Part shown: positions 2,573 to 61,209 of the stretch, piece after piece
How the letters are laid out: each line of letters begins with the position of its first letter
How positions within the stretch are numbered: the first letter of the stretch is position 1
Origin: Octopus sinensis
Lineage: Eukaryota
Direction: 5' to 3'
DNA length: 64,000 nt
Assembly: GCF_006345805.1 (NCBI RefSeq)
Contig: NC_043008.1
Span: 60,822,001-60,886,000, forward strand
Notes under the pieces: generated by a model
What the model saw: the letters and a program-made list of their open reading frames with translations, nothing else
Database searches by the model: none
Told to the model about the DNA's origin: nothing
Made by a program: the position numbers and the translations under genes

Positions 2573-3780
2573 TTATTTCTTAATTTGCCACAATGGCCGC
2601 ACACAAAAAGAAGGGACGATACAACACAAAGGACAGTAGATGTACATATAGTGTGTGTAAAGAGTAAAAAGTTAATAACATATAACCATAAAAATTCAAC
2701 AACAAAATTTTCCAAACGGAGGAAGGTCCATCTGGGAACTCCACTCATCCTGGACAACTCAGCAGGCACACCTATCTTTCCCAACTCTTCTGGTTTACAA
2801 GCATATGTTCAGAATAAGCGTATTCACACGGGCCATCCTCGCCATTTTCACCTATCCTACAACAAAGTTACTGAGGGGTAGCACTTCCTTCTTTACCCTC
2901 ACTTTCTTTTTTTAATGGAATTTGAAACAGTCGATGAGAGCATGGCTGAAGAGGAAAATATCTATCTTCATTCCTTTTCACCTCGTTCACCACACTACCT
3001 CTTTCAAAATAGCCACCAGACAGTAGAAAACTGTTTTCCCTTCCTGGCCAAAAGGAGGCGGCGGGGCAATCGTCATAATGCTCTCATTGATAACCGGATC
3101 CGCCCTACCTGCGTCAGCAGCTGTTCGATAAAGCTTCGTCTTGCCCAAATACTGCAGAACGGTTTCATCGCCCCGGTCACATCTCGGACATGGCAGCAAC
3201 TCCGAGCATGTACAACTTGTCTCGAACAGAGCTCCTCGGTATCACTCTCAGGCGAGGCATTTCTGAAAATTATCCAAGGGTCCCAGCTCGAAAGTCATAC
3301 GGAAATGACAAGCTGAGTAATCCTTCCCGACGCCCAGATTTTCCTCAAGAACATCATCGTTCTTTCACGCTACTAATTCCCTATAGAATTCAAATGTTGA
3401 AATTTTACCGAGCACATAGCCCGACTAGCAGAAAGCTGTGAGCGCTTGCGGACACTCCAGGTGTGAGACGCTCTTTCTCGGTCTATAGGTTAATCCAGGG
3501 CAGTAGTTCTGTGGAAAACTCTGTCTGATAAACGTCAACCACACCTGCTCACCATTAATGAAATGCTGGAGATGTGGTATCCTCAGCGCATGTCTGTGCA
3601 TCATTAGTTACAGCATACCTAGTCTTCCGCTCAGCGGCTGCTAACAGCAGATGAATCATGTGCCGAGCGGAACACAGAAAACGGAAAACAAGCACTTCAG
3701 CTTGATCAGCTAGGATGCTGGACAAGTGGTAGTTGATGACGGAAGCGATGTTTGAATTCCCCATCTCTGCACGACCATTC
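2573..3780 (-). mobile_element. Tx1/L1-clade LINE, 5'-truncated: zf-RVT region plus 3' UTR
   Basis: Minus-strand translation gives WIIFRNA...VRDKLYMLG...CPRCDRGDETVL and FYCLVAILKEVVW, the L1/Tx1 C-terminal zinc-finger pattern. Stops and frameshifts present. The 3' end abuts the (AAT)n tract. Confidence 0.8.
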
Positions 3781-4019
3781 AGTGACAGCTTTCTCTCTGC
3801 CCATTTCTCAACTGAGAAAATTTCTGATCATTTAAGTTCTACAGCCATTTTATAAGACACTTATTTGTACTGTGTCCCGTTTTACATTTCGAGTTGGAAA
3901 ATATCAACAGTTTTAAAAGTTAATTTCTGCTGGGGACAGCGTATTTCGTTATACAATCGTAATATACTTCGAAGTATACTAAAGGCTTATAAGTCCTACC
4001 GGATTTGTTAATGTAGGAG

Positions 4020-4072
4020 AACTGGTACTGATGAAGGTGCAATGACTCCTGAAATATGGTTATACACCAGTT
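4020..4072 (+). ncRNA. Type I hammerhead ribozyme motif
   Basis: AACTGGTA-CTGATGA(4028-34)-AGG..CCT stem II-GAAA(4051-54)-TA TGGT TA-TA-CACCAGTT. Stem I has 7 bp plus an A.C mismatch next to the cleavage site. Confidence 0.75.
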
Positions 4073-4679
4073 ATATAACTATGTCTGTACTGAAGTGTTC
4101 TGTACTGAAGAAACTTGAAAAAAGTACTATTAATTTCTTTGTTGTCATCGCTACATCTGATTGTCTTTTACATGAATGTTCTGTTAACGTTTCCTTACTT
4201 TACGGTCCATATGTTTTTGCCATATGTTTCCTCATACAGTGTTCATGGAGTTCTCTCCGATTTAAGGTTCATGGACATCTAGTGTGCCTTTGTAGCATTT
4301 ACCAGAATTTTACTAATTGTTGTAGATGCCTATATAGTCATGAATATATCAGTGTACACTCTCGGTCTCATCACTCTTAACTGAGAGGAGCATCCAGGCA
4401 GAAACATCTGTAGAAGCATCCTGAAGCTTCTACAGTTGTTTAGACCAAGACGCATTGCATTATCCAGGCCATGAATTGAACTCACAGTCTTAGGATCCTG
4501 AACATGACACTCGACCACCAGGCCAGGTGCTACTTTTCTATAAAAATGTTACATCGCTTTCATGCTCCTTTACATTTTCTATCATACGACATGTGCTTTA
4601 GATGTAAATGAATAAATTTATCAATAACATTTACCTCACACTCACTACAAGACATACATTTATCCAACAAGACCAATAA

Positions 4680-4880
4680 TAATGATTTCAAATTTCGGGG
4701 TAGGGAATAAATCAATTGCATCGACTCCCAGTACTCAACTGGTACTTATTTTATCAACCACGAAAGGATGAAAGTTAAAGTCGACTGCGACGGCATTTGT
4801 ACCCAGAACGAAAACACGGACGAAATGGTGCTAATCATTCTTGCCCTGCGTGTTAACAATTCTTCCAGCAGGTCGCTTTA
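4680..4880 (-). mobile_element. Family A SINE, reverse, decayed
   Basis: CTGGTACTTATTTTATCAACCACGAAAGGATGAAAG is the reverse complement of the central domain. Confidence 0.8.
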
Positions 4881-5107
4881 GAAAGACCAGTAACATTAGT
4901 GTAATATTTTGCCTGTCATCAACGAAGTTATCTTTCATAAATGCTTAAAAATAAAAAACTTCTTCCACATTATCTTTTGTTGGAACTCATTCTATTACTA
5001 TTTGTAGACTCAATATATTACCAGTTACCGCACACCCTACTTTCTTACTATAAAATCCCACCCACACACATGTAGACACAAACGCACGTAAACATGTACT
5101 AATAATA

Positions 5108-5312
5108 CGAGGTGGTGCTGAAAAGTTCCTGGCTTTGGGTAAAAGTAACTACAGGAAGATCAGTTAATTATGATTTTTTTCAGCACAGATTTGCGCACTT
5201 ATCGCAGTGGTCCTTCAGTTTTTCTAAGCCCTGTAAAGGAACTCGGAAGTTTGGGCCTCTAACCAGGAATTTACTGACATCCTTAAAGTCAGAAACTTTC
5301 CTCACCTCCTTG
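5108..5312. mobile_element. Mariner-type MITE
   Basis: Imperfect TIRs CGAGGTGGTGCTGAAAAGTTCCTGGCTTT / AAAGTCAGAAACTTTCCTCACCTCCTTG, flanked by TA on both sides (5106-07, 5313-14). Confidence 0.75.
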
Positions 5313-7060
5313 TATATGTATGTTGTTTGTTGTATAAATTCATCTATGTTTCCCTATGATTTTCAATTAACATACATACACTCACATAAATATATACACC
5401 TACATATGTGTGTGTGAGTATGTGTATGTGTGTGTGTTATATATGAGGTATATAGGACTTGAAGTTTCGCCTCATAGTTTATACAACTGGCACAGGTTGA
5501 ATAATTCGTCTGGTAAATTTGATGTTCCACTGGAAACAAATTACATAACAAATATATTTTGAATGTTTAGTTTTAAGGTCCTACATCAGTAGAAGGTTCT
5601 GTTAATAGTCTTAAAATTCTTTTAAAATAAGAACACCAAACCGAACACACACGCTCTCTCTCTCTCACTCACACACGCACACATACACATACATACACAC
5701 ACACACACATTCAAAAACGCACGTGAACACACTAGCAACACATTCAAGCAAATATATATGGATCTGTCTGGTCATCATCATCATGACCATCATGACCATC
5801 ATGATCATCATCTATAGATGTTAGTTCCTTCTGTCTTTCTCTCTATTTCCTCTTTTCCTTCGCTCTCCATCTCTTACCCGAAGCGACATTATGGAATGGC
5901 GAATAACTATTCCACTCTCTAACTCTTTCTTTTGTCTTTTTCTTCTCCTCTAAATCAATCAATGAACCGATAAATCAATCTATCTGTGTGTAAATCTATT
6001 CATCCAACTATTGTTCCTCTACTCTCTTCTACTGTCTCTCTCCTCTCTGTCACTCACTCTCACCATCTTCTCTCTTGTCCTCATCCTACTTCCCTCCCCT
6101 TCTCTCCTTCAATCTCTCTCTCTCTCTCTCTCTATCTGCATATGAATGTGTGTGTGTGTGTGAGTGTATTTATATTCACATATACATATATGAATGCATA
6201 TACACGCATACTAAGACACACACACATCTAAGTCTATGTGTGTGTGTGTACGTATGTTTGCATCCGTTGTTGTACGTATGCGTTTATGTATAAACTCACA
6301 TTCCGGCCGTCTACGGCACAACAGCTACATCTCTCCTATCAATCCATTCACCAAGATTGATTCTTATTTATCAATCTCTTATTTCTTCGTTGAACAGGCT
6401 CCATCATTCTGTCTATCACCTTCACAACTTCAGTGGTTAACTATTCTTCTGTCCACAATTCTTACGCTCTCCATTTAATTCCATTCATTCGTTGATGTCA
6501 TCCTCTCCACTCCGTCCCTTCCTACCCGTCTCTATCCAGATATCTTTTCACCTCTTCTATATCTCCCCCCTTCTTCATTTCATTCTTTCTTCTCCATCTC
6601 GCTCTCTCTCTCTCTCTCTTTCCTTCTGTCTGAGATCTCTTGGGTGACCGCTATATTTCTTTTGTTTATTAATATCTTAACGCAGCATTTAGATTAAAGA
6701 ATTAAAATGGTGGTAGGTCATGTAACGTATTGGATTGTTCTTGCCCGTGTCTTCAAGCAGTTTATCCTGATCTACTGAGTACAATGGAAAACTCTTTCCG
6801 TTTCCCTAGAGCAAGTGAAAAAAATTTAACACGTAAATTAAAAACAATTACCCACAATGCATTCATCGTTGAACTTTACTTCCTTATCTCAATTTATTTC
6901 TTATTAAAGCTAAGAAGACGTGCAACGCTGAATTCTAATTATCCCAGTCAAGTGCATATACATAGCGCCACTAACACAAGTCGAACGTGGTTGTTCTACC
7001 ATGGGACCGTTTTCTACAAGTTCGTTTTGCTTCTTCACTGGCAAAATTTAATGATAGGTT

Positions 7061-11200: not shown

Positions 11201-11999
11201 GAGAGGTGAGGAATAGCAAACTGGGAATTATGACTAACCAAAGCCAGACAAATTGAAAGTAACAACATTACTCGCAGAGGAGTAAAAAACAAACAAACAA
11301 AGGAAGACCAAATAAAAAGCAAAATTAATGCGTGTTCAGTACAATCAACAGGTTAAGGAAACAAATTATGGCAAGAATTTGCATTGCCCTTTCCAGAAAC
11401 CTAATAGAAAAGCGTTTAAAATCAACTATAGATAGAGAGAGCCATAGAGAATTGTCCTGAAATAAGGCAAACAACAAGAAATCGAGATCGAACACTAAAC
11501 ATTGCAAGCGAGGGCTAACAGAAAGACTCTGTATTCAAAACAATATACAAATCGTACGAATAGAAACAAAAAAAGTGAGAAAAAAAAAAAACACGTGTTT
11601 CAACGCAAATATATGTAGAGAGGAAATACTCCCAGTTCTATCAAATATGATCTCACCTGCATGAAACTGCTGTAAAATAGAAAGCATGCACAATATATAT
11701 ATATATATATATATATACATACATACACAGAGAATGAGAGACACACACACACATATAAACTTAGTGTTAATAAAAGTCAGGTCTGCGTTGCGTACCTTTA
11801 ATGAAAAAGATGGTATATATGGAAATCAATATGAAAAACAAAATGCAATGTAAATGAAAAAAATGCATTGTAAATAAACGACAGGTGAAAAACTTATACG
11901 TATAGTTAGTGTAGGACCAGACGAGATACATAGTGTCTGTAGGTTGAGGGACAGCTTTGATTCCCATCTATTAAATATTTAGATACCAGGACAGAATTG

Positions 12000-12450
12000 T
12001 AGAATGGTACATCATCCGTGTGCAGATGCCACCGACCGACATGGAAGGGATCTGGCCTTTTGCAACGAAATCTCTTCCTGAATACCCTCGAAATCTCCAC
12101 AAACTATTCTTTGTTGACCGCTTTGCCATAGATGTAGATGATGCCCTTGATGTCGTAAAAGCGGTTCACCATAAGTTTCATGGTGGATATGCCAGGATAC
12201 TTCCCCTCGAGACACTGTCCCTTGGTCTCTCAATCATAAGAGTAGGTCCAAATTTCGTCGCAGGTCACCAGAGTCTCAAGTATTCTTGGGTTGCAGGTAA
12301 TAAGCCCGAATATTTCCCTGCTGTCACCAACATGTCTTCCCTTCTCTTCGTCACTGAACACCATGGTACAAATTTTGCACAGATTTTGCATCTGCTCAGA
12401 TATTTATCAATAATTCTGTGTGTATTTGCCACACCAACTCCAGATTGTAT
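12000..12450 (-). mobile_element. Mariner (Tc1/mariner) transposase relic
   Basis: Frameshifted minus translation: KICAKFVP...LETLVTCDEIWTYSYD...KLMVNRFYDIKGIIY...FRKRFRCKRP...WHLHTDDVP, matching the WVP, TxDExW and HxDNAP motifs. Confidence 0.8.
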
Positions 12451-12524
12451 TTATATGATGGAATTGTTATATACAGTGCTCAGGTACACTAAAACTTTAA
12501 AAAAAAGTTGGCATTAGGTATACT

Positions 12525-13720
12525 GCTGGCGAAATTCAGGAAGCATGGAAATGTTGAAAAATGTGTTGTCTCGGCAGCTAACAACTGATACAGATAGTTT
12601 ATTCCTTGCTTCAGCAATTCAGAGCGTGAAAAAATGTTTCCGAAAGTCTTGGGTGGTGTATTGCTTTTTGATATTGAAAGCATGTCCACGAGATTTTGAC
12701 ATGTGGAATTCAAAAAGGTGCCCAAGTTTGTTGGTGGAAAGATGGTGGATAATCTTGTGAGTGTCTGCCAAGTCAGTTGCCAGATGTCGGAATTTTAATG
12801 TGTCTATGCTCAGGTATTCGTTTGGTTGCACGTTTCTGAACAGTTTCCAGGGGATTGATATGCAGCGCAATATAGGGGTTCCAGACTGGTGATGGAAACT
12901 TTAAATGTGTACGTAACATAGTCACACACAGTTTTAAATAGATAGGAGGAGAGCGGCTGACAAATGCTTTCCTGAGTGATGCTGAGAGAGCCTCAGCCTT
13001 CTTGACAATATTAGAGTTGTAGTTTCTTTCCAGAGCAGATCGGTGCTTACAATAATACCCATGTCACGTTCACTGACATACTTCTTACGATTGGTGTTGT
13101 TATGGAAAAGCTGTCTTTTTTCTCCCCCAAAATAGGCGTAGGAGTGGCTGTGTGGTACGTAGCTTGCTTACCAACCACATAGTTCCGGGTTCAGTCAGAC
13201 AGCATGGCAGCTTGGACAAATGTTTTCTACTATAGCCTCGGACTGACCAAAGCCTTGTGAGTGGATTTGGTTGACGAAAACTTAAAGAAGCCCGTCGTAT
13301 ATATGTATATGTATATGTGCATGTGTGTGTATATGTTTGTCCCCCCCACCACATCGCTTGACAACCGATGCTCGTGTGTTTAAGTCCCCGTAACTTAGCG
13401 GTTCGGCAAAAGAGATCGATAGAATATGTACTAGGCTTACAAAAAATAAGTCCTGGGGGCGATTTGCTCGAGTAAAGGCGGTGCTGCAGCATGGCCACAG
13501 TCAAATGACTGAAACAAGTAAAAGAGTGAAAGAGTAAAGGAGTCGCACTTGTTCACAGCTAGCTTGAATTGTCAGTCAGTAACTCATAGCTGCATTGTGT
13601 CCAGGTCTAATTGTGTCCAGATCTATAGCAAATAGGATCTGATCTTTTTATGATTTAGTACACTTATTGTCAATATAGACGCATGGCGCTCTTCATCCAA
13701 AGAAGTGCGTAATTTTTGTA
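12525..13720 (-). mobile_element. CR1-clade LINE 3' portion, interrupted by a SINE at 13134-13537
   Basis: DLDTMQL*VTD*QFKLAVNKCDS | LFWGRK is continuous across the SINE. C-terminal SRGHAFNIKKQYTTQDFRKHFFTL is typical of CR1. Confidence 0.8.
13134..13537 (+). mobile_element. tRNA-derived SINE, family B (CORE-like), full length
   Basis: GGCGTAGGAGTGGCTGTGTGG A-box, GGGTTCAGTC B-box, CORE-like CTTGGACAAATG, internal (TA/TG)n and tail GACTGAAACAAGTAAAAGAG. Confidence 0.9.
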
Positions 13721-17710: not shown

Positions 17711-17760
<50 letters not shown>

Positions 17761-17792
17761 AAGCGAGAAAGAAGCAACAAGAATGGATAGGT

Positions 17793-17883
17793 TTTTAGTA
17801 CGATCGTGTCATACAAGGACAGGTTTTATTAAAAGTTGCAAAGATTACAGCATATAAACGAGTCCCGTACTCATCAGCTAAAA
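17793..17883 (-). ncRNA. Type I hammerhead with long stem II and one core substitution
   Basis: Minus strand: TTTTAG-CTGATGA-GTACGGGAC...GTCCTTGTAT-GACA (for GAAA)-CGATCG-TA-CTAAAA. Stem I is 6 bp perfect. Confidence 0.7.
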
Positions 17884-17974
17884 TACATGTAAGTTCTCTA
17901 GACATCCTAGTTTTGAGGCTATACTCATGAAGTAATGTAGATAATTAAACAGATTTCTAAAGTTCATTAAAGTT

Positions 17975-18074
17975 NNNNNNNNNNNNNNNNNNNNNNNNNN
18001 NNNNNNNNNNNNNNNNNNNNNNNNNNNNNNNNNNNNNNNNNNNNNNNNNNNNNNNNNNNNNNNNNNNNNNNNNN
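17975..18074. other. Assembly gap (100 N)
   Basis: Run of N. Confidence 1.
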
Positions 18075-18484: not shown

Positions 18485-19548
18485 ATGAAAGGCCAAAAAC
18501 CAAATTTCAATTGCAACCCATCCGTCAGTCTTGTAAATCCTTTGAAAACGGTTATAGTTATCAATAATAGGAAAAAATCATAGACAAATGTTCACCAAAA
18601 ATATATTTAAAATCGATATTAACTCTATGGAGTAACACTTCGAAGTAATAGATTGACTCAACAAAATCCCAACCAAAAATGAATAACATTTCTACCAGTT
18701 TCACATAATAGATTTTTATGCTTCAATAGTATTCTCATAGCTGCTTTGAACTTCGCTAAAACCATAACCACAACAAACGACACCGAAATAAAAACAATTT
18801 TATCTGCAAGGAAACCGCTCCTCTTCAGAAACCGTAGCAATGTTTTCTGAATTAAGAATTAAATAAATCACTAATAAATCATTTGATGTAAGTATGGGAT
18901 CAAAAGACTCGGTAGAGGTAAGCCACATCGTTGTTTTTTTACACAATAAATATCCATCCGTCACAGATGGTCTTTATACGGACGACGGTCTACTCCTGCT
19001 AAGGATCTAAAACCTACAAACAGTCCTCGATAAATTTGGGAAGACACTATGTCTCTTCTTAAAAAATTTGAGCTTCTCTATTACTGTAGAAACACAAATA
19101 AATTTCAGTCAACTTTCTTGGCATTACTATCGACCTGGAATCCAGTATCTATAAATCATACAAGAAAGATAACGAAAAATTTCAGTATATACCTAAAGAA
19201 TAAAACCACCCCAAAAGCATTATTAAAAACTTAGTAAAGATCATTTCTTTTTCACTTTCTTCTTTTCTTTAAATTAAAATAAACAAAAAGAAATAACACC
19301 CCCATATAGCGAAGCTGCCAACAACAGCGGTTAGACGGGAAAAGTGCAATATATGAACAACAAATCTCGCACAAATATGAACATACATAACTATAGAAAA
19401 AGAATAACCTTCTGGTTTAATCCACCCTCCAACATACAAGTCCCTATAGCAGTAGCCAAATTATTTCAGAAAATACTACAAAAACCCTTCAACCACAAAC
19501 ACATGTACTACAAACTAATAAACAAACACTATGTAAAAATGAAACCAA
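18485..19548 (+). mobile_element. Penelope-like element reverse transcriptase relic
   Basis: Frameshifted translation: KPNFNCNPSV.LVNP, FYQFHIIDFYASI, ALNFAK, ARKPLLF, FDVSMGS.DS.EV, GLYTDDGLL, RKRITFWFNPP. These are PLE RT and thumb motifs. Confidence 0.85.
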
Positions 19549-20000: not shown

Positions 20001-20044
20001 CCACCTGAAGATTGTCGATCAAGGACAAGAAACAATTGTAGTGG
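20001..20044 (+). ncRNA. Minimal type I hammerhead ribozyme, intact core
   Basis: CCAC-CTGAAGA-TTGTC GATCAAG GACAA-GAAA-CAATTG-TA-GTGG. Stem I 4 bp, stem II 5 bp, palindromic stem III, GUA cleavage triplet. Confidence 0.85.
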
Positions 20045-40094: not shown

Positions 40095-42287
40095 AGGAAT
40101 CCTGCTATCCCTCATTCTGGGGATAGGTGTCCAGTCCAACGGAACCGGTGCTTGTGCACCATCGCCTCAATACTCAAGACATTATATGTCCTCAGGACCT
40201 GTGTGTCTGGAGTTTTTAAGGTACAGCCAAGGAGCGATGTCAGTACGGTACACAGAAAGTTTTTTTTTTTTTGCTTTGTGATGCTACGCTGGAACCGGAC
40301 ACGAGACTGAAGAGACCGGAAGGAATCAGTTGCTCGCTGCAACCTGAAAGATATTTAATCATCTAGGGAGCTGGGTGTGCTGTCCAGGTTGACAAACTTG
40401 TCTACCACTTTCAGAATTGTTCTTTCAACAAAGATAGCTGGTTCTACATACGGATTTTCTGGTGCAGGCTGGACCATTACAACAGTTTTGTCCAGGCTAT
40501 TGCTGAGTCCAAATGCCTTGCAAGAAGCAGAAATACGATTCATAAGTACTTGCATGTCATCCACTGTATGACTAAGTCAAAGTCAACGGCATAAAGAAGG
40601 TCATGAATAAGACTGGAAAACTTTTGAATTGGCAGCAAATTGGTGCAGATTAAAGAGGCGGCCAGAAGATCGATATCTGACATATTTTCCCAGAGAGCTA
40701 ACCTTAGCATGATTAAAAGCACTAGCAAAGTACAAAGAGAGTTGGAGAAAGGATGTCACCCTGCTTGACACCATTCTCAATAGGAAGGGGTCGTGCTATG
40801 CCACCACCAACATTGACAGAAGCCTCCATCCCATCATGAAATGATTTAATTAACGACAAAAAGATCTGGACCTCCAAGTTTGCCAAGTATTTTCCATAGC
40901 AAGGCTCTATTCACAGAATCAAAGGAATTCGTTAAATCAATGAATACCTGGACAAGATCTACATTCTGCTCATAGCCCTTTTTCTTGCATATATCTTGTG
41001 AAAATCATATCCATTGTCCCTCTACGAGATCGGAAGTCACATTGAGATTCAGATAGGACATCATTTACGAGACACCCATTCATGCGGGTAAGAAGAATAT
41101 TTTCGAGAGCCTTGCCAGCAGCTGATAGTAGAGCAATACCTCTTTAGTTACCTCACATTATTCTGGCTCCTTTTCCTTTATAGAGAGGAAGAATAGTTGC
41201 ATACTTCCAGTCCTTGGGCATTGCACCATCCCTCCAGACTGCACTAATAAGTTCAAGAAAGGATAGTATAATGTAATCACCACCAAATCGTAAGACCTCA
41301 GCACAAATTCTATCATTTACAGGTGCCCTGCCAAGATTCAATTTATTTATTGATATCATTACTTCATCTATTGAGGGCATAGAATTTAAAGAGACATTGG
41401 TAGGTCTTTGTTGCATAGTATCAATCACTATTTCATCCACAACTGACTCGTGGTTTAGGAGCTTAGAGAATTGTTCGATCCAGCGACCTGTGATTTCTGT
41501 TGATTTAGTAAATAGAGTGGAAGTCTCCTTGGAAAGCAAAGAAGCTGATGTGGATATCTTAGGCCCATAAATTTGCTTCATAAGACGGTAAAGCTTCTTG
41601 TTGTCATTTGCGTAAACATCACAAGCAAGATCATCCCACCAAATGTTCTGCATCTTCCTGAGAGATCGCTGTAAAATCACTACTGCAGTGGTGATTTACT
41701 CTGCCGTAGTGGGCAAGTGGTAGATTTCGCTGCACTGCGGAAAGTCCTCTGTGTTGCAATATGTTGTGTGCATGGCGCTTTACAGCCAATAATGGTTGAA
41801 CTTCAGCATCATTTTCATCAAATCAGTCTCTGTGTCTGGCAGTAGCATATCCCAGTGTTTCAGCAGCACAAGGAAGAACCTGGTCTCACAAATATTCCCA
41901 TACTGTAGCATTTTCAATGCTAGAGAAACGAGTCTGAATCTCTTTCCTCAACACACCATCATATATCTTATGGACATTCAGACGCCGAGGAATGCTGATT
42001 GGCCCTCTTCTCTCTTTCACTCTAATCATCATCCTGAACTTTGTTAGCGCCAGACTGTTGTCTGTCCAGCATATCGATCCATGAAAGTAGTTGACATTAC
42101 AAATGTCATATATTTCATGATTGCGGATGATGACATAACCTAGCAAGTAGCAAATTTTAGACCTTGGATGCGTCCATGTTGTTGTGAAATCACCTTTCTG
42201 CATATAATGAGTGTTTGCAATGCAAAGTCCATGTTCATCGCAGAGCACCAGCAGCATGAGTCCATTGCTATTCAGTTTCCCCACTCC
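40095..42287 (-). mobile_element. RTE-clade LINE (endonuclease-RT), decayed
   Basis: GVGKLNSNG..LCIANT..TWTHPRSK (APE), PSIDEV..RAP..D.I.AE, MPKDWKYATILPLYKGKG, YAVD (RT) and SIEAM..RFRWTGH. Confidence 0.9.
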
Positions 42288-42545
42288 AGAACGAGTCTGA
42301 TGTCTCGGAGGTGTTCCCCGAACCGGCCAACCAAGCGGGGTCCCGTTTGACTCATGTACAGAGAAGGACAGAGAGAGCAGGAGATGCAGTAGATGACGTT
42401 GCTAGAAGTGCAGGTAAAGGAGTCAGTGATATGATAGGGTCGATGATGGATGCCGGTAAGGCTGGTGGTGGAAGGTTTGTAGCAGAGAGAAAACAGGAGA
42501 CGGGTGACGGCGGGGTGGGTATGGGGAGACAGAGCAGATGCACAG
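42288..42545 (-). mobile_element. Penelope-like GIY-YIG endonuclease fragment
   Basis: Minus frame HITDSFTCTSSNVIYCISCSLCPSLYMSQTGPRLVGRFGEHLRDI. Confidence 0.85.
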
Positions 42546-44124: not shown

Positions 44125-44257
44125 TATTCGAGACAAAACCACTATTTGCAAAACAAACAAGGAAAGACTTAATCAATACATAAAATTTTATGTATTGATT
44201 AAGTCTTTCCTTGTTTGTTTTGCAAAATAGTGGTTTTGTCTCGAATAATATTTTATA
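44115..44257. repeat. Spacer-less palindrome with arms of about 70 bp
   Basis: Centre CATAAAA|TTTTATG at 44185/44186. The arms differ by a 1-nt indel. Confidence 0.95.
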
Positions 44258-44738: not shown

Positions 44739-44806
44739 AGTTCTACTGATGAGCATAGACGCATTTTTTTATGTGGTAAGTGTGAAATCACAGGTGATAT
44801 AGAACT
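44739..44806 (+). ncRNA. Type I hammerhead ribozyme, intact core, all three stems
   Basis: AGTTCTA-CTGATGA-GCAT..CGCAT TTTTTT ATGTG..GTGT-GAAA-TCA CAGG TGA-TA-TAGAACT. Stem I is 7 bp perfect. Confidence 0.85.
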
Positions 44807-48898: not shown

Positions 48899-48988
48899 AT
48901 GCAGTACGATCGTTTTATGCGACTCCATTTAATTGAACAATGCAAATATTACACCAATGTTAAAATGTAGAGCAATCTTCAACTGCAT
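48899..48988 (-). ncRNA. Degenerate long-stem II hammerhead
   Basis: Minus strand: ATGCAG-TTGAAGA-TTGC...GCAT-AAAA-CGATCG-TA-CTGCAT. Stem I is 6 bp perfect, with two core substitutions. Confidence 0.6.
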
Positions 48989-55593: not shown

Positions 55594-55778
55594 TATTCTG
55601 TTGTGTCTGGGGAGTGTCATTTTCTTTTTGTGCCTTATAATGTAGCATACTCACCGGTAAAATTTCCAATTATTTATTTTTATTTAAAAAAAAAAGAAAG
55701 GAGTGGAAATTTTACCGGTGAGTATGCTACATTATAAGGCACAAAGAGAAAATGACTCTCCCCAGGCACAACAGAATA
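55594..55778. repeat. Inverted repeat with 75-bp arms and a 35-bp spacer
   Basis: 55594-55668 pairs with 55704-55778 with few mismatches. Confidence 0.92.
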
Positions 55779-57996: not shown

Positions 57997-58354
57997 GATA
58001 TATCCATATCTATCTATATGATATATATATATATAAAATTATAGATATTGGATTCAGCAAGGAGTACGTTTGGACAAATTTATATATGAATCCCTACAAT
58101 TGTTTCCACGCGACGTTGTTCTCCAGGCTTGCAGTTACTTGATTATGCAACCGTTTCCCTGCACTATGAGATCTAACTGCGTTTCCTCAGGCGATGTGTA
58201 AATATTGTCCCGGAAAGTTAAAATTCTCGGCTTCCCGAAAATTTTCTCTGTCTGTCGTGGAAGCACAGGCTAAATCTGAAGGGGGACGAATTTTATACTG
58301 CACTTTACGATGTTCTTAACAGAATATACCATAACTTTATATAATATACCATAT

Positions 58355-59944: not shown

Positions 59945-60454
59945 GGAAACAGAGATATATCATTGGCATATTTATTAAAAATTTTATTATAATATAATTA
60001 TACTATAAAAAAAGATATAATACAGTATAATATATATGGTATAACAAATAATTAAAACAAATATATATATGCTACAATTTGTTTCGATTCATATGCAGTA
60101 ATGGATTTAAAAAAAAAAAATCATATTTATGCATAAGAATCTCATCAGGGAAATATTTGTCTAAAAAATAGACAAATATTTCATACAAGGACTAATAAAT
60201 CATAAAAAAAAAAATTATTATTAGACTGATTAAATCAGTTTGTTTCATAATTTCGTAGTCTTTGCATGAAATTTTTGTCTTTTTTAAAGATAAATATTAC
60301 CCTTACGATATTCATATGCATAAACATGTATTTTTTACAAATTCTAGGATACAAATTTGTTTTAATTATTTGTTATATTATATCTTTTTTTATAGTATAA
60401 TTATATTATATTAAAATGTTAATAACTATATGTCAATTGTATTTCCCTATTTCC
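59945..60454. repeat. Long imperfect fold-back (arms of about 220-280 bp), pLTR-like
   Basis: TATAATATAATTATACTATAAAAAAAGATATAAT and ATAACAAATAATTAAAACAAAT recur as reverse complements. Centre near ACTGATTAAATCAGT at about 60233. Confidence 0.85.
60067..60153 (-). ncRNA. Type I hammerhead with intact core and long stem II
   Basis: Minus strand: CTGATGA-GATTC TTATGCA...TGCATAT GAATC-GAAA-CAAATTG-TA. Stem I is partly mismatched. Confidence 0.7.
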
Positions 60455-61123: not shown

Positions 61124-61209
61124 GTTCTACATATGCTTCGTAGTGAGTGGAACCTCGGAAGTAGTATATATCCAAGCGTGGTGTGTACCAAAGGCTACTC
61201 TTCAGGCCA
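61124..61209 (-). ncRNA. Degenerate long-stem II hammerhead
   Basis: Minus strand: CTGAAGA-GTAG...CTAC-GAAG-CATATG-TA. Stem I is mostly lost. Confidence 0.5.

Follow-up and report, generated by a model that had tools for sequence, protein, structure and literature searches.

In the 64,000-nucleotide stretch of Octopus sinensis DNA analysed here (the window), the hammerhead motif at positions 17793 to 17883 is rather probably a mutated type I hammerhead ribozyme of a Hydra-type Penelope-like element (PLE), of which the intact relatives would cut only as pairs joined through a palindromic stem III, the long stem II arm being an extension of helix II. The motif was recovered on the minus strand exactly as given in the preliminary description, with stem I strands TTTTAG and CTAAAA, CTGATGA, a 60-nt span, GACA, CGATCG and TA. 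The motif, its parts and the surrounding element are as follows:

17793 to 17883, minus strand: type I hammerhead of family A, with the core change A14C (GACA)
17878 to 17883, minus strand: stem I 5′ strand TTTTAG, pairing with CTAAAA over 6 bp
17871 to 17877, minus strand: core CUGAUGA
17811 to 17870, minus strand: 60-nt stem II arm with a G+C-richer base, bulges, an AT-rich middle and an apical hairpin
17807 to 17810, minus strand: second core block, GACA in the window copy and GAAA in the family
17800 to 17807, minus strand: stem III, the self-complementary 8-mer ACGATCGT, with a predicted dimer duplex of -10 kcal/mol
17793 to 17799, minus strand: stem I 3′ strand CTAAAA after the predicted cut, placed after A17 (17799) from the hammerhead consensus
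17758 to 17974, minus strand: 217-nt 3′-end remnant of a young Hydra-type PLE

The remnant ends in a (TA)n tract ~37 nt beyond the cut site, and its 5′ side is masked by a 100-N gap at 17975-18074. Over 218 nt the window copy differs from the family A sequence at locus L031 by the A14C change and one deleted base. The GACA in place of GAAA, already noticed in the preliminary description, is private to this copy (26 of the 27 family A rows are intact) and sets it outside the CUGANGA/GAAA/UH core of type I hammerheads. A14 is needed for hammerhead catalysis, and the window copy is probably inactive owing to its replacement.

The other three long-armed motifs described before (48899, 60067 and 61124) are real as well, and all four lie on the minus strand. 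Their spans of 60, 59, 56 and 59 nt fall at the low end of the ~55-70 nt claimed. The window harbours two further motifs of the same kind, one long-armed and one short-armed:

48899 to 48988, minus strand: family B long-armed hammerhead, 59-nt span, related to family A
60067 to 60150, minus strand: family C long-armed hammerhead, 56-nt span, stem III CAAATTG
61124 to 61208, minus strand: family D long-armed hammerhead, 59-nt span, with GAAG for the GAAA of the family majority
58092 to 58193, minus strand: fifth long-armed hammerhead, missed before, 77-nt span, CAATTG, core at 58190
20001 to 20044, plus strand: hammerhead with a short (17-nt) arm and a stem III of the same type, from a very common family

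Core damage that had passed without mention was found in the copies at 48899 (two changes, TTGAAGA and AAAA) and 61124 (GAAG); the copy at 60067 has an intact core and a broken stem I with just one contiguous pair. The motif at 58092-58193 stems from an older family with arms of 76-77 nt, the relatives of which carry endonuclease fragments upstream. Short motifs at 20005 and 44746 had also been omitted; the latter belongs to a hammerhead-like sequence at 44739-44806 (plus strand) with a 7-bp stem I, a 31-nt span and a stem III (TCACAGGTGA) that is longer and of monomer type. A decayed Hydra-type RT fragment from an old family lies at 19105-19260 (plus strand). A tie between this fragment and the 17-nt hammerhead family is unsupported because seven relatives of the fragment are without the motif. 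When the whole window was scanned with Rfam, the matches listed (150 of 185) were all to miRNAs and driven by microsatellites, and microsatellites likewise dominated the repeat search. Long near-perfect inverted repeats at 55594-55778 and 44128-44245, with weak Rfam matches to miRNA precursors, are possibly inverted element ends. ORF fragments at 11975-12900 and 41153-42401 (minus strand) resemble, from their translation alone, remnants of non-LTR retrotransposons.

Each of the four window motifs is the decayed 3′ end of a different repeat family (A to D); for these families a first look at the 2.72-Gb genome yielded 971, 2,300, 170 and 1,332 candidates, respectively, 40 of each being scored. 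A consensus lacking an intact core had been named beforehand as grounds for refutation, and it fails as such because the majority sequence of every family holds an intact type I core. Core and site are intact in 26 of 27, 22 of 32, 10 of 33 and 17 of 36 rows for families A, B, C and D, these rows being best-scoring copies rather than a random sample. Family A is young, with 99% identity among the matches listed, the window copy itself excepted. The proposal that the motifs form one class did not hold, as they are not homologous as one: a covariance model of the related families A and B gave the window A and B copies 95 bits but 60067 (family C) only 19.5 bits, and missed 61124 (family D). A single covariance model thus failed for C and D, which were compared with a model built from two related families. 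The arms of different families could not be aligned.

Judged by its coding remnants, family A is a young PLE with Hydra-clade protein motifs. Two of its copies lie 4,553 bp apart with RT and GIY-YIG remnants between them. The RT contains the RWK and DKT motifs (RRIRWKTY and PADKTGN) and is followed by a CxCX5C linker (CKCRIKSKC), all three being among the Hydra-clade features of Craig et al. 2021 (PMC8557442). The C-terminal GIY-YIG domain matched Pfam PF01541 at E 1.8e-4 and 22.2 bits, just below the 22.6 cut-off, and CxxC and CxH were read by eye from frameshifted sequence; both assembled full-length copies are frameshifted. By eye, the protein fragments resemble the Octopus Hydra protein in the supplement of PMC8557442. 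The family also shows (TA)n insertion, tandem and inverted copies, and a tail. Hydra-type RT or endonuclease fragments occur upstream, on the same strand, of long-arm motifs with spans of 51, 55, 57 and 77 nt, and near family C copies. With the Hydra-derived queries that were used, by which ORFs of other clades would be missed, no ORF was linked to family D and no firm link was found for short-arm families. RT fragments at locus L049, considered for family B, were rejected as belonging to another long-arm family.

The host element is of unusual size. At L031 a long asparagine-rich insertion separates RT and endonuclease (3100-4300), and the 3′ UTR that follows (4720-6140) runs to ~1.4 kb and includes a pyrimidine-rich tract; both make family A much longer than described Hydra elements. 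Family A measures 4.55 kb with a tail of ~118 nt, whereas the Hydra elements of PMC8557442 are mostly under 3 kb with tails of 30-40 bp. The hammerhead lies ~1.4 kb past the end of the ORF and ~210 nt ahead of the next start codon in tandem. Also at L031 (5900-6400), A>G or T>C makes up 40 of the 48 differences in sequencing run X2, whereas two other runs have 6 of 17 apiece; some of the places lie in stem I and in the base of stem II. The pattern resembles A-to-I editing but may also reflect alleles, the RNA status of the run being a guess. Tandem arrays with one hammerhead per unit were seen at L277:1081-2807, L278:1195-2258 and L219:590-5377, with units of 404, 444 and ~550 bp and hammerhead spans of 42-45 nt and 26 nt. 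These arrays are retrozyme-like, and dimer cleavage would be most easily achieved in them.

Of 35 family A insertions, 12 stop 36-37 nt and 18 stop 154-160 nt beyond the cut site, two end classes that are the two-ended tail signature of PLEs. As the insertions extend past the cut site, they were made from RNA that was continuous across it. Such reading through the site would also suit motifs that have no catalysis or no relevance in vivo and are retained for their structure or as signals for insertion at the DNA level. In the anole element PAc, hammerhead mutants had no effect on in vitro insertion and no RNA ends were seen at the site (partial text of PMC11167929), and metazoan minimal motifs are described as cleaving weakly (partial text of PMC4209133). 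However, many families with changed stems have retained the core bases, the GUH site and palindromy, and G-U-tolerant changes point to pairing at the RNA level; we regard dead motifs as very improbable.

The abundance of long-armed motifs was determined with the exact pattern CTGANGA-span-GAAACNNNNGTA, using the reversed pattern as control. Spans of 40-70 nt gave 27,843 genome matches against 541 for the control, and spans of 6-30 nt gave 9,838 against 520. A narrower stem III pattern gave 5,171 (6-24 nt), 1,880 (25-39 nt), 14,186 (40-70 nt) and 1,992 (71-100 nt) matches, with controls of 30, 23, 48 and 58, respectively. Among 50 genome loci fetched by pattern, stem I of at least 3 bp was present in 35, a stem II base of at least 3 bp in 39 and both in 32; in 47 viral and metagenome matches tested in the same way, the numbers were 4, 17 and 0. 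The long-armed motifs are not chance matches, because of both the excess of 27,843 over 541 and the 32 of 50 against 0 of 47 with both stems. Those 47 matches (9 metagenome, 38 viral), in which the two stems never occur together, were themselves treated as chance; these collections are mostly microbial and uninformative on other animals. Long arms outnumber short arms ~3:1, and the long-arm observation is larger in extent than first reported. Copy numbers are dominated by few families, and short-armed families also reach thousands.

The arm is folded. As claimed, it is paired at its base and AT-rich toward the tip, with a G+C fraction of 0.45 at the base versus 0.26 in the middle third, the base being higher in 44 of 50 arms. 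Absence of conserved pairing in the arm, the other ground for refutation, was not observed: stem I, the stem II base and the apical hairpin covary. In an alignment of 18 related motifs (families A, B and kin; related sequences, with the poorly aligned middle of the arm left out), 87.8% of 376 cells are paired in the named structure, as against 30-46% when the partners are slid. Changes on both sides were found in 10 of 21 pairs and are located in stem I, the stem II base, an inner helix and the apical hairpin; their number was matched by 36 of 500 shuffles. In the A/B group the apical hairpin covaries at columns 45-54 (UA 7, CG 6, UG 5). An unconstrained RNAalifold fold, in which the core was paired with stem III, was set aside. 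As in type I hammerheads, three covariation-supported helices surround the core, with helix I open-ended. Arms of 46 clusters of at least 40 nt had a mean z of -1.64 versus 0.01 for upstream controls; z was below -2 in 17 of 46 versus 1 of 46, with 29 of the 46 clusters not reaching that value.

Arms that fold better than their shuffles while upstream controls do not, and that show structure-preserving changes in the distal hairpin and inner helix rather than at the base alone, argue against the arm being neutral baggage, that is, AT-rich hairpins grown by slippage in loop II, with a high count owed to a few successful families. Length differences do map to the AT-rich, self-complementary tip, the few dominant families fit it too, and so do the thousands reached by short-armed families, and this reading is given a small probability. 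Arm length overall ranges from ~17 to 90 nt. In a single lineage spans of 36, 38, 39, 44, 68, 69 and 77 nt were found, differing mainly at the tip. In a biased sample, spans of 51-63 nt occur in 26 of 46 clusters, from many families seemingly unrelated in sequence, and the first irregularity in helix II, read by eye, lies 3 to ~12 bp from the core.

It had been proposed that the arm serves as a tertiary-contact or RT-recognition element. A fixed contact or RT site is unsupported because arm length varies and no arm-flank pairing was found: in 21 motifs the longest helix between loop and flank averages 4.52 versus 4.45 in shuffled sequences. An arm-flank pseudoknot was accordingly rejected, there being no excess of complementarity over shuffled sequences. 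In addition, PAc insertion survives loss of most of stem II, the shortest active template starting at +20, past most of that stem (partial text of PMC11167929). Non-circular permutation inside the arm was likewise rejected, because an internal substrate strand was present in none of 50 arms. Rather than making a specific contact, the arm probably extends helix II as a hairpin that folds on its own. As the fold is conserved without conserved length or sequence, a scaffold is placed ahead of a module for protein binding or docking, and neutral growth comes last.

The clustering at 51-63 nt hints at a constraint that a plain scaffold leaves unexplained. The arm may instead be a selected module that gates cleavage or marks the RNA for reverse transcription, either as a site bound by a host protein or by the RT-endonuclease of the element, or as a surface for non-Watson-Crick docking. 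The ~3:1 excess of long arms, the keeping of 51-63 nt by many sequence-distinct families and the covarying apical hairpin of the A/B group are in line with such a module, as is the cutting of the PAc hammerhead only with protein present (partial text of PMC11167929). The lack of alignable arms between families, the variation from 36 to 77 nt within one lineage, the loop-to-flank helices no longer than in shuffled sequences, the wandering irregularity in helix II and the +20 template of PAc speak against it, and we consider a selected module rather doubtful, if less so than neutral growth.

Pairing of two hammerheads through stem III, the core of the reading preferred here, is suggested by the palindromes. 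Stem III had been described as a palindromic hexamer; it is palindromic indeed, but becomes an 8-nt palindrome (ACGATCGT, ACATATGT) once A15.1 and U16.1 are included, and CAAATTG at 60067 is a 7-mer interrupted palindrome rather than a hexamer. By a hand tally among the 100 matches listed, the four central bases are perfectly palindromic in 73 of 96 readable rows, with eight palindromes represented (GATC 23, ACGT 21, ATAT 8, TGCA 8, CGCG 5, AATT 3, AGCT 3 and GGCC 2), while 15 rows pair via G.U and 8 are unpaired at the centre of stem III. The rows are related, being copies of perhaps 20-25 families, and should not be counted as independent. At the very centre, two neighbouring bases, which cannot pair in a monomer hairpin, are complementary in 85 of the 96 rows among the matches listed, in four types. 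The eight sequences fit dimer pairing. For each of the four families, nearest-neighbour energies place a strand-swapped dimer 8-15 kcal/mol lower than two monomer hammerheads; it is not the two-strand energy minimum in any of them, and the family C dimer lies above two minimum-energy monomers when only contiguous stem I is counted. The proposal of a palindrome-mediated dimer thus gains support from the palindromes and the computed energies but is not new: a short palindromic helix III, as found here, and dimer cleavage have been published for the hammerheads of Penelope elements (PMC4209133, PMC3088659 and PMC7229834, each in partial text).

A single copy of an intact family member would likely remain uncut, and cutting would follow when two copies pair through the 8-nt palindrome. 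A monomer stem III of just 2 bp would keep the ribozyme off, and therefore uncleaved monomer RNA would be available to serve as RT template. In tandem transcripts, of 4.5-4.8 kb full units or of 400-550 bp arrays, two copies would swap stem I strands, pair their palindromes and release unit-length RNA, possibly aided by the protein of the element; such release of unit-length RNA by dimer cleavage in tandem transcripts has been proposed for these elements (partial text of PMC4209133). Helix II would be the only helix to stay local in each half of the dimer and would therefore be free to grow, and a long helix II hairpin may pre-fold each half without the usual contact between loop I and loop II. 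The location near the 3′ end of an element with RT and GIY-YIG, the intact family cores, the covarying stems, the eight palindromes and the read-through insertions support this dimer-gated reading.

Existing models largely pass over these motifs, as had been suspected. Rfam RF00163 (Hammerhead_1) gives an end-to-end alignment of family A at the core, stem I and stem III, but scores it at 22 bits against a gathering threshold of 34, with 54 nt skipped where the model has 8; no match at gathering level was obtained in 13 loci. A published descriptor allows a stem II of 3-7 bp with a loop of 3-10 nt, a span of ~26 nt at most according to the part of the source available, and cannot match long-armed motifs. 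The motifs also depart from the canonical type I hammerhead, with its helix II of ~4 bp and loop I-loop II contact, in their spans of 40-90 nt and in showing no excess Watson-Crick pairing between loop and flank.

The canonical hammerheads of the Hydra clade (Craig et al. 2021, PMC8557442, File S2) share with the present motifs the type I topology near the 3′ end, the short stem I, a U.U or G.U beside the core and (TA)n targets, as well as a host ORF with RWK, DKT, CxCX5C and, at its C-terminus, GIY-YIG. However, the Hydra entries of File S2, the one from Octopus included, have spans of ~11-25 nt, while those found here are mostly 40-90 nt. Like the present motifs, the minimal hammerheads known from metazoan PLEs (Cervera and de la Pena 2014, PMC4209133; Perreault 2011 Fig. 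S8, PMC3088659; both in partial text) have a helix III that is short and palindromic, are predicted to cleave as dimers, occur in thousands of dispersed copies and lack a loop I-loop II contact. Unlike the arms described here, their "larger than usual" helix II comprises 7-8 bp; a "long helix II" elsewhere comprises 6-8 bp (partial text of PMC13725137). A precedent among PLEs is found in PLE-X1_sMoe and PLE-X1_sTam of spike moss, with stem II spans of ~50 nt, which are flagged as "deviates from canonical structure" (PMC8557442, File S2). Those are two plant families with loops listed as unpaired and not analysed, whereas in the present animal genome the long arm is the majority architecture, folded and covarying. 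The 404- and 444-bp units resemble metazoan non-LTR retrozymes (PMC7229834; bioRxiv 10.64898/2026.07.22.740005; both in partial text) in their tandem hammerheads, but differ in arms of 42-45 nt.

A different arrangement was seen in Naiad elements, which are reported without canonical hammerheads (PMC8557442). In the consensus printed there just before Naiad_Hpol, the 3′ end shows, by eye, a 5-bp stem II; within its loop lie the cleavage triplet, the 3′ strand of stem III (10 bp) and that of stem I (6 bp), which resembles the order in non-circularly permuted hammerheads (partial text of PMC10085705). Two Octopus Naiads show the site, GAAA and then CUGAUGA, in that order. The Naiad "half cores" look permuted by eye and were dropped as long-armed type I motifs; from their sequence they may be permuted ribozymes.

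In the literature searched, which included few subscription papers, no description was found of a class with a 40-90 nt helix II or of long-armed hammerheads in cephalopods. As far as the sequences allow, the dimer idea appears well supported but known, while the long arm as majority architecture is an apparently undescribed variant, for which a specific role is unsupported so far. A stronger version holds that the 40-90 nt arm of the majority class is a selected control module licensing dimer cleavage, by binding the element protein or by replacing the loop I-loop II contact. We hold this possible only at a modest level. If true, a majority ribozyme class of more than 27,000 copies would be invisible to Rfam and published descriptors, so that surveys of animal genomes may understate their ribozymes several-fold.

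Of the hammerheads with this type of stem III, roughly three in four in the genome are caught neither at the Rfam threshold nor by the standard descriptor, and surveys of animal ribozymes can therefore miss the dominant class. The octopus families form a natural test panel, with eight stem III palindromes, including complementary central bases that can pair only in a dimer, a single lineage with arms of 36-77 nt, a young family and short tandem arrays. This panel makes testable both the dimer cutting of Penelope-element hammerheads in vivo and the role of helix II once the contact between loop I and loop II is gone.
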